This document shows positions 3,769-27,929 of a stretch of DNA of 27,929 nt, one piece after another; positions within the stretch are counted from its first letter, which is position 1; every line of letters begins with the position of its first letter. The notes under the pieces were generated by a model. It saw only the letters and a list, made by a program, of their open reading frames with translations. It searched no databases and had not been told where the DNA came from. Origin of the DNA: a virus (Duplodnaviria; Caudoviricetes); the IMG/VR virus record IMGVR_UViG_3300044267_000302, positions 1 to 27,929 of that record; one strand, given 5' to 3'. The translations under genes and the position numbers were made by a program.

Positions 3769-4346
3769 TTCTTGTAATCCTTTGCCCTGCAAGGGTTTTG
3801 GCTAATACGACTGTTGCTTCGCCTAGCTCGAATGCCCAAGGGGTAGTGAATAACAACGCAACCATGATTACACCCTCCAGCTTGCCCCAGAATCGCTACA
3901 GTCAAGGAATTGTTTGTACCTCGCCCAGTTTGACCATAACTCCTTATTTGACAGATGCGTGGTCATTTAACCGCCCTATAGAAACAGTTACTAAACAAAA
4001 TATTTACGATGAAGATACAGGCCAAATTAAATATGTTCAAGAAACCCCAAGGTTCGAGAAGGATAATTACAACTTAAATTATGGAATATCTATGCAATTT
4101 AATATTCCTTTGGGTAAAGGTGGTGAGCTTTGCCAGAAAGCTGCAAGGGTAAATATTGAAGCTCAAGAGTTATTAATATCAAAAACTAAAATGGAAATGG
4201 AATTATATCGTTTAAAAATTTGCGGTGAGCAAGCAAGATTAGGAGTTGTTTTTGTCGGTAAGTATCAAGTTAATTGTGATGGAATCAAACTTATTGCACA
4301 ACCAAATCAAGTTCTACCTCATACACACAAAATAAAAACTAAGTAG
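3630..4346 (+). CDS. Secreted Cys-containing protein with beta-hairpin + long helix (outer-membrane pore-like candidate); start uncertain
   Basis: Signal-like segment KYFWSVILVILCPARVLA|N at residues 41-58; four Cys in the mature part; alternating strand NYGISMQFNIPLG followed by a long amphipathic helix. Confidence 0.8.
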   Translation: MENSKCWTKFQFSGIAARCWPFKRNHNKSDYYNYHNNGNSKYFWSVILVILCPARVLANTTVASPSSNAQGVVNNNATMITPSSLPQNRYSQGIVCTSPSLTITPYLTDAWSFNRPIETVTKQNIYDEDTGQIKYVQETPRFEKDNYNLNYGISMQFNIPLGKGGELCQKAARVNIEAQELLISKTKMEMELYRLKICGEQARLGVVFVGKYQVNCDGIKLIAQPNQVLPHTHKIKTK

Positions 4347-25302: not shown

Positions 25303-25314
25303 AGTGGTTTTCTT

Positions 25315-25473
25315 TTAACTATAGTGAATTGTACTGCCATGTCTAGTAGTGACATCACCAGACTTTTCGGGTACAGGGTTTGGATCGTTAACACCTAGTT
25401 CGCTAACGATAGCTTTTTCAGAGACAAATTTTCCGTCTTCATCTCTTTTTCTACTGGACTTCTTGTTGGGCAT
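25315..25473 (-). CDS. Small hypothetical protein, 52 aa, with RDxxGKF motif
   Basis: Start revised to the ATG at 25473, preceded by GGAGG-AACCAA; overlaps the last 23 nt of the portal gene. Confidence 0.7.
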   Translation of the reverse strand: MPNKKSSRKRDEDGKFVSEKAIVSELGVNDPNPVPEKSGDVTTRHGSTIHYS

Positions 25474-27531: not shown

Positions 27532-27726
27532 CTAGTTCTCCAATACGCTGTTAGTTAACATAGTTTCTTTTTGTCTTAGTTGTTGTTCAATTAGATAGTC
27601 AACAACAGACCTCTGCCCTGCACGATACCACACTTCTCGATCTGATAAGGATAGGTCTGGGTGTCTGTTAGGAAACACAGCATCTAAAGCTTGTATAAGT
27701 TCGTCAGTAATTACTGGTAAAGACAC
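27532..27726 (-). CDS. Conserved-type phage hypothetical protein (gp6.5 position), 64 aa
   Basis: GTG start; LDAVFP...AGQRSVVDYL pattern; TATAAT box 23 nt upstream (27750-27755). Confidence 0.8.
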   Translation of the reverse strand: MSLPVITDELIQALDAVFPNRHPDLSLSDREVWYRAGQRSVVDYLIEQQLRQKETMLTNSVLEN

Positions 27727-27765
27727 AAAAATTGAAGAGCTATATCTATATTATATGTTAATGTG

Positions 27766-27843
27766 TAGATAACAAGGGAGTGGTTATCCTTGTTGCAACG
27801 CTAAGAAAACCTCAAGGGTGTGGTTCCTCTTGGGGTTTTCTTT
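27766..27843 (+). ncRNA. Candidate twin-hairpin small RNA; the second hairpin may also act as a bidirectional terminator or RNase III site
   Basis: Hairpin 1 AACAAGGG-AGTGGTTA-TCCTTGTT and hairpin 2 AAGAAAACCTCAAGGG-TGTGGTT-CCTCTTGGGGTTTTCTT; both loops carry GTGGTT; G-U pairs form only on the plus strand; TTGAAG-N16-TATGTT lies upstream. Confidence 0.45.
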
Positions 27844-27929
27844 ATGGGTTCCAAAGTTTTACTTCACCTGTATTGTAATCATAATCTCCTTCTCGCAGTA
27901 TTCTTGTAAGCCTTGCGTTCAAGATAGCA
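27842..27929 (-). CDS. gp6: 5'-3' exonuclease (T7 gp6-like), C-terminal fragment
   Basis: Manual translation ...AILNARLTRILREGDYDYNTGEVKLWNP*, matching the ARxxRILR...LWxP end of T7 gp6. Confidence 0.85.
   Translation of the reverse strand, partial: AILNARLTRILREGDYDYNTGEVKLWNP

Follow-up and report, generated by a model that had tools for sequence, protein, structure and literature searches.

A two-hairpin unit at positions 27771-27843 probably encodes a trans-acting antisense RNA that represses the early region of its own phage, with a logic like that of the c4 RNA but with many targets; we put the probability of this reading at about 80%. The unit was studied in a 27,929-nt stretch of viral DNA, hereafter the window, which is an entire contig from a DNA-polymerase-less T7-like cyanopodovirus. 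The lineage is an abundant T7-like ocean cyanophage, and its closest isolate is Prochlorococcus phage P-SCSP2, described in excerpts of PMC9860041 as a T7-like cyanopodovirus without DNA polymerase. The early and middle regions are absent from the window, so only late-gene matches were visible to the initial annotation. Comparison with relatives established, at the level of sequence, the spacing of an extended -10 promoter, a plus-strand structure, the enrichment and position of a 7-base tag before start codons, G-U-type variants of that tag, matched switches of loop and tag, and the lack of a detectable MarR gene.

Structure, Strand, and Conservation of the Two-Hairpin Unit

The unit lies between the stop codon of the exonuclease gene (27842-27844; the 3' end of the gene occupies 27842-27929, minus strand) and a 64-aa gene (27532-27726, minus strand), the first gene of the late block. 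The predicted small RNA of ∼73 nt (27771-27843, plus strand) is antisense in orientation to all neighbouring genes, and its ends were placed by promoter spacing and by a U-run. Hairpin 1 (27771-27794, plus strand) carries seed 1 in its loop (27779-27786), which costs 0.25 kcal/mol to open. Hairpin 2 (27803-27842, plus strand; loop 27819-27826), which is likely a terminator as well, has undergone compensatory and G-U changes and is flanked by U-runs on both strands. The main 7-nt seed at 27820-27826 (plus strand) is the reverse complement of a sequence that precedes early-gene start codons; we use "seed" for 27820-27826 and "tag" for its reverse complement.

The plus-strand fold of 27771-27843 has an energy of -28.9 kcal/mol, and none of 200 shuffles folded as well on either strand. 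Folding energy alone cannot choose the strand, since the z-scores are similar (-4.55 for plus and -4.72 for minus). Stem mismatches were counted in 32 distinct structures: A-C or C-A mismatches occur 37 times in the minus-strand folds and never in the plus-strand folds, which bears out the initial annotation in its remark that the stems show G-U on the plus strand and A-C on the minus strand. Its two adjacent hairpins with a shared 6-nt loop core are present in the window and conserved in relatives, and the U-rich downstream end is present too. Covariation across relatives, which it had proposed as a check, was found in a 16-sequence alignment as two-sided changes at 8 of the 19 consensus pairs, many via G-U intermediates. 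A covariance model matches the window at 27771-27845, a circular result, and Rfam gave no match in the window at the gathering score (best E-value 1.7, to an unrelated family).

The loops are the fixed part of the unit. Among 82 relatives chosen by the adjacent gene, loop 1 is invariant in 74/74 covering loci, on variable stems, and the 7-nt core of loop 2 (the seed) in 71/71. In a sister clade the stem of hairpin 1 has been wholly replaced and loop 1 retained. Loop 1 is altered in two small groups; L576, L592, L593, and L606 combine a changed loop 1 and new stems with an identical 7-nt seed, and in this group all seven tagged early starts (7/7) have two 5' flanking bases that extend the pairing with their own loop 2. 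An extra hairpin with a different loop stands between the two seed hairpins in 6 of the 67 relatives that span the gap (L001, L008, L012, L014, L034, and L065). Several of these extra loops look anti-Shine-Dalgarno or anti-AUG, yet a target search found none.

Predicted Promoter and Transcript

A host-type extended -10 promoter (TG, one base, hexamer) is predicted at 27756-27764 (plus strand) by conservation. The last hexamer base is fixed in 59/59 distinct units and the three preceding bases vary (10 nonamer types), TG and the first two hexamer bases being partly imposed by the search pattern used for these units. The same spacing was found in 28/28 sister-clade loci that had been chosen by loop alone, without a promoter pattern. 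Transcription would start near 27771, at the foot of hairpin 1, and the ∼73-nt RNA would end in the U-run of hairpin 2, so that conservation points to the promoter and terminator of its own that a trans-encoded small RNA should have. The promoter put forward in the initial annotation did not hold up: its -35 hexamer at 27732-27737 occurs in 1/59 distinct units, and the conserved extended -10 lies five bases downstream of the claimed -10. Contigs from RNA libraries touch the element in 7/7 RNA runs; these are no evidence for or against expression, because the runs were found by the element's sequence, are unstranded, and possibly contain DNA.

Conserved alignment columns mark an A/T-rich stretch at 27743-27759 (minus strand), a putative divergent promoter serving the late block and its first gene (64 aa). 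It was not found in the sister clade and is therefore not needed for the small RNA. The idea that it is a repeated phage-polymerase promoter was rejected, there being no close copy elsewhere in the window. Separately, a core that we take to be T7-promoter-like is conserved before the scaffold gene (window 25317-25330, minus strand) and after the terminase gene (L210, near 34760); these cores are candidate promoters of a phage RNA polymerase.

A Tag Complementary to Loop 2 Precedes Early-Gene Start Codons

In 6/6 complete relatives the tag stands just before the AUG of the integrase gene (identified by Pfam PF00589), and in each it also precedes several other early genes. It is the top 7-mer in 20-nt leaders of the six complete carriers (21/300, vs 0/293 in five control phages, which are phages without the RNA), and its core is the top 6-mer (27/300 vs 2/293); host leaders gave 0/1550. 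Within the window the 6-mer is not enriched (7 seen, 6.1 expected); the enrichment at starts that the initial annotation had suggested as a check appears, for the tag, in the complete relatives. Of 59 integrase loci, 51 have a readable start: 40 carry the exact tag, nine an A-to-G variant that keeps G-U pairing, and two neither, one of the latter (L620) carrying the RNA.

The tag is confined to early genes. Early gene families with the tag number 34/75, vs 0/23 for middle/late families (p = 1.1e-5), and the corresponding counts of distinct starts, called by a simple rule that gets a few wrong, are 63/237 and 0/140. In a replication on metagenome contigs, from which already-seen starts had been removed, the tag preceded 37/165 early and 0/53 middle/late starts; for integrase, 51/74 starts had the exact tag and 12 more the variant. 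The end of the tag is 1 or 3 bases upstream of AUG in 48/63 cases. Inner one-base variants of the tag are G-U compatible with the plus-strand loop in 22/23 cases, all of them being also transitions, a frequent class of change anyway. Opening the loops and the target sites costs little (0.25-1.0 kcal/mol), and the duplexes reach -10 to -11.6 kcal/mol. The arrangement of c4-type RNAs, loop-exposed seeds complementary to translation-start regions of the phage's own genes, is thus present here. The exact tag was not found at three conserved small genes upstream of integrase (25-29 starts each), and the bases flanking the tag track the loop only loosely.

Two observations concern neighbouring sequences. 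In some early leaders of the sister clade (the L712-L744 group) a loop-1 site lies a few bases before the loop-2 site, and both loops might bind one mRNA there. The gene just upstream of integrase in L554 (8000-8215) encodes a small zinc ribbon like the N-terminus of NrdR (PF22811); it occupies the position of MarR in other T7-like phages and belongs to a family without the tag.

These data bear on whether the tag is read by an RNA at all. A protein, such as a RegB-like nuclease or a translational regulator, might recognise it, with the mRNA-strand hairpins as decoys or cut sites; the minus-strand loops do display the tag, and both strands fold better than shuffles. We consider such a reader very unlikely, as A-C mismatches are found on the minus strand only, the plus-strand promoter is conserved in two clades, and the variants of the tag can still form G-U pairs with the plus-strand loop.

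Loop and Tag Change Together

An altered seed loop occurs in L657, in which loop 2 has two changed bases. A scan with the changed loop gave 33 matches, 27 of which are the element and six of which were dropped as something else. L807 and L808 are chance matches and not the element. Fourteen sister-clade loci with this loop include early genes (two of the 14 had been chosen by the tag), and the correspondingly changed tag stands at 16/62 of their distinct starts and the original tag at 0/62; in the earlier main-clade set the changed tag was found at 0/237 early starts. Loci chosen by the exonuclease alone gave the same picture, those with the changed loop having the changed tag at 9/49 early starts and the original tag at none, and those with the original loop having the original tag at 17/54 and the changed tag at none. 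All these loci are related and partly redundant, and the counts are not tree-corrected for independence; the sister-clade switch may be a single event.

The changed tag spans six protein clusters, and for two of them homologues in the main clade carry the original tag. Three contigs show a third and intermediate state of the loop; only L760 includes an early region, and its integrase carries the matching tag. The three tag states form a path of one step at a time, along which mismatched pairs are still able to pair as G-U. Seed-target covariation, as expected of a trans-encoded small RNA, was accordingly observed in three matched states, the third resting on one contig. L744, an exception, combines the changed loop with seven early starts that all lack a tag. 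Loop 1 stayed the same where the early tag changed.

The matched switches weigh on several functions that do without pairing in trans. The position of hairpin 2 beside the stop codon and its two U-runs suggest that the exonuclease gene ends in a processing site or in a terminator working in both directions, and hairpin 2 may serve so in addition. As the sole function we judge it highly improbable, for it leaves unexplained the fixed loops on replaced stems, the dedicated promoter, and the matched tag switches 7 kb away. The plain exonuclease terminator and the RNase III site like T7 R6.5 named in the initial annotation both fail to explain these switches. So does its protein-titrating RNA, and the plus-strand loops complement the tag rather than repeat a motif. 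A primase site or origin was dropped from consideration: the 6-mer has no strand bias in the window, and the tag switches would be unexplained.

Late Genes and Host RNAs as Possible Targets

The initial annotation had proposed that the RNA mainly delays translation of late genes, and its three loop complementarities, to the scaffold, 52-aa, and 102-aa genes, are all present in the window at the coordinates that it gave. Their conservation differs. The site of loop 1, an exact complement at 25303-25309 (minus strand) directly before the scaffold AUG, is kept in 42/66 loci and in 16/23 sister-clade loci, though in only 7/21 distinct leader types; in a third group, where both loop 1 and the scaffold leader are altered, the two still pair over 7 bases. 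The 9-nt match of loop 2 to the 52-aa gene is retained in 5/63 loci, and the match to the first codons of the 102-aa gene is exact in 1/5 complete relatives in which that gene was called. With these two sites not conserved, and with the tag at 0/140 and 0/53 middle/late starts, late genes are very improbable as the main targets. What stands of the proposal is that a trans-acting small RNA probably pairs with translation starts of its own phage; the target class is early rather than late, with the integrase and the variable early genes marked by 63 tagged early starts. The pairing of loop 1 with scaffold, the sole late target named there to survive, is a possible secondary one.

Host RNAs were weighed as well. 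Loop 1 matches the D-loop of 3/4 host tRNA-Ser, a complement of 9-11 nt exists in host 5S rRNA, and loop 1 is fixed when the early tag changes, all of which would suit loops acting as a tRNA-Ser D-loop mimic or as antisense to 5S rRNA. Such a role could apply to loop 1 only, as the changes of loop 2 follow the phage's own tags. Chance alone is expected to give single short matches, and complements of the seed near host starts number seven where 9.2 are expected; we regard action on host RNA as extremely unlikely.

MarR, Lysogeny, and the Host

In other integrase-bearing T7-like phages (LUZ100, P-SSP7, HTVC019P, and S-SRP02) a MarR gene lies beside integrase, and excerpts of PMC10134795 propose that this MarR-like regulator controls the integrase/RNA polymerase block in a T7-like phage. 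A MarR profile that recovers 4/5 held-out seeds at E ≤ 2e-19 found no MarR gene in 70 loci of the present clade (best E 6.1). Conversely, the covariance model of the RNA gave 30 strong matches, all of them this element, and none in P-SCSP1a, P-RSP2, P-SSP7, S-SRP02, or Deep1-GF2-KM23-C739, in the left parts of HTVC019P and LUZ100, or in two non-T7 genomes. P-SCSP1a has no annotated integrase and no tag.

A search by portal match found no prophage in 285 Prochlorococcus genomes, and a search for an attachment site found no match to the tRNAs of MIT 9302. In its excerpts, PMC8776855 reports only transient integration in other T7-like cyanophages and no homologue of known lytic repressors. The missing prophages and the merely transient integration weaken the lysogeny part of our proposal. 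The erratic timing of lysis by P-SCSP2, from ten hours to days according to excerpts of PMC9860041, favours some latency.

No host copy of the RNA was found in 151 genomes, and neither the unit nor the cassettes described below have a long match to host MIT 9302. An exact scan of genome contigs for hairpin 1 gave 19 matches, no record among them having Prochlorococcus in its title; in L194 the element sits on a MAG contig. In host genome G001, at ∼416500-436000 (L392-L393), the 5' part of tRNA-Ser(TGA) is present three times, once as the intact gene; the other two copies look like scars of integrative elements.

Cassette Arrays at the Wider Locus

In 14 of the 67 gap-spanning relatives hairpin 2 is followed by a second unit, which comprises an extended -10 of its own, between one and four modules, and a hairpin that closes it. 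The modules are stem-closed and 45-100 nt long, and the same modules occur in tandem elsewhere, including in two near-complete genomes without a T7-like portal. Arrays were seen behind hairpin 2 (L011, L012, L044, L068, and L161), between two convergent genes (L084, L101, L128, L160, and L462), and between the scaffold and capsid genes (L095 and L102). They stand behind extended -10 promoters, are shuffled in order and content, and occur in marine phages both T7-like and non-T7. When 151 distinct arrays were split automatically, 51 clusters resulted, 22 of them in at least two arrays, some clusters being splitting artefacts. Rfam gave no match for the cassette modules of 20 loci, and a target search found none.

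The window has no modules at these sites. Its convergent gene pair at 4339-4346, which flanks an array in many other phages, abuts without one; G009 has a single short module at that convergent-pair site (L554, ∼1550-1585). Module cluster 2 (L015, L084, L101, and others) shares 8/11 bases with the conserved Yfr1/Yfr10 motif given in excerpts of PMC2518516, and is possibly a host small-RNA mimic, or simply an anti-Shine-Dalgarno seed. The non-T7 array carrier G005 has a 450-nt non-coding stretch before its early genes (L567, 4230-4677) that by eye seems structured; one complement of loop 1 lies within it. In L224, L232, L236, and L242 a protein-coding gene has apparently been inserted behind hairpin 2, replacing RNA cassettes.

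Proposed Mechanism

In the mechanism that we propose, two stems would hold open loops complementary to the 7-base tag before integrase and many unrelated early genes. The RNA, predicted to be made by the host RNA polymerase, would pair with the tags in trans and block ribosome loading. In the standard model of small-RNA action, pairing over the bases that precede AUG blocks 30S loading, so repression is the likely outcome; the direction of control is assumed from the position of the tag.

The same pairing could in principle act in the opposite direction, the RNA shielding early leaders from RNase E or aiding their translation. Protection against RNase E by antisense RNA is a known feature of cyanophage infection, and all the covariation evidence is compatible with either direction. 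Protective antisense RNA and RNase E induction are discussed in excerpts of PMC2518516. We think this outcome improbable, as the duplex lies over the bases immediately upstream of AUG, the place that the 30S subunit has to occupy, and the leaders are unstructured already.

Under repression, further consequences would follow from gene order. The integrase and RNA polymerase genes overlap by 8 nt in 3/4 genomes examined; where they do, repression of integrase could be passed on to the polymerase by translational coupling. The small-RNA gene, ∼7 kb downstream of integrase, would enter the cell later, giving a delayed negative feedback that ends early expression in lytic growth. The same circuit may silence a genome that has integrated or stalled, taking over the part of MarR in other T7-like phages with an integrase. 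A tag of closely related sequence, and perhaps also the start of scaffold, would be covered by loop 1.

We also entertain, as a speculation more doubtful than not, that the clade controls both its choice between lysis and latency and its immunity by RNA alone. The small RNA would have replaced MarR, incoming early genes would have been recruited by gaining the 7-base tag, and loop-tag switches would create heteroimmune groups in the ocean. The RNA would then be the constant component of a larger system, whose stem-closed cassettes are stacked downstream of host-type promoters and exchanged between cyanophages of the T7-like and non-T7 kinds.

An RNA aimed at integrase and the early region would be a concrete and testable regulator in an abundant marine lineage. 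If the proposal is true, a phage builds a multi-gene regulon from a 7-base tag and changes the code in step. T7-like cyanophages often have an integrase, and the small RNA would offer control where excerpts of PMC8776855 report no homologue of a known repressor. P-SCSP2 on MED4 is a cultured carrier, and a phage engineering method is described in the same source.

Comparison With Known Systems

Our literature search, with subscription papers and supplements mostly outside its coverage, yielded no paper describing this RNA or the cassette arrays. The MarR system of other integrase-bearing T7-like phages is a protein acting on transcription, whereas this clade has the RNA and no MarR was detected; in the MarR-bearing records searched, the RNA was not detected. 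In T4, early-mRNA shut-off depends on RegB and RegA, a single protein factor recognising one short motif across many early leaders; the reader is a protein there and an RNA in our proposal. In CsrB/RsmY-type RNAs the loops repeat the site of a protein, while the loops on the supported strand here complement the tag. An R-type RNase III site of T7 has one long mRNA-strand stem with a free loop; here the mRNA-strand stems contain A-C mismatches, and the loops are the conserved part.

Among small RNAs of the same host system, Yfr1/Yfr10 of Prochlorococcus and the cyanophage CfrI, wcaG, and manA RNAs (excerpts of PMC2518516 and PMC12197685) are likewise small and structured, but have no sequence or model match to the element and differ in motifs and contexts. 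SviR of the PLE satellite (bioRxiv 10.1101/2022.04.08.487710) is a trans-acting, multi-target viral small RNA that lowers translation; it is directed by a satellite against its helper phage, and its abstract does not describe a shared start-codon tag.

The closest parallel is the c4 RNA of P1 and P7, to which the CI RNA of P4 is related. Like the cyanophage unit, c4 is a structured RNA of ∼75 nt with loop seeds that targets, in trans, mRNA of its own phage close to the ribosome binding site, and differences in its seed sequences separate phage groups (excerpts of PMC12197685 and PMC8546580). According to the same excerpts, c4 is processed from a precursor and serves one antirepressor operon, whereas for the cyanophage RNA a separate promoter is predicted, ∼7 kb away from the targets. 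It does not match the Rfam C4 model, its target is not an antirepressor operon that gives rise to the RNA, and it matches a tag before dozens of unrelated early genes including integrase. We concluded that the cyanophage RNA, although by model match, origin, and number of targets not a member of the c4 family, works like c4.
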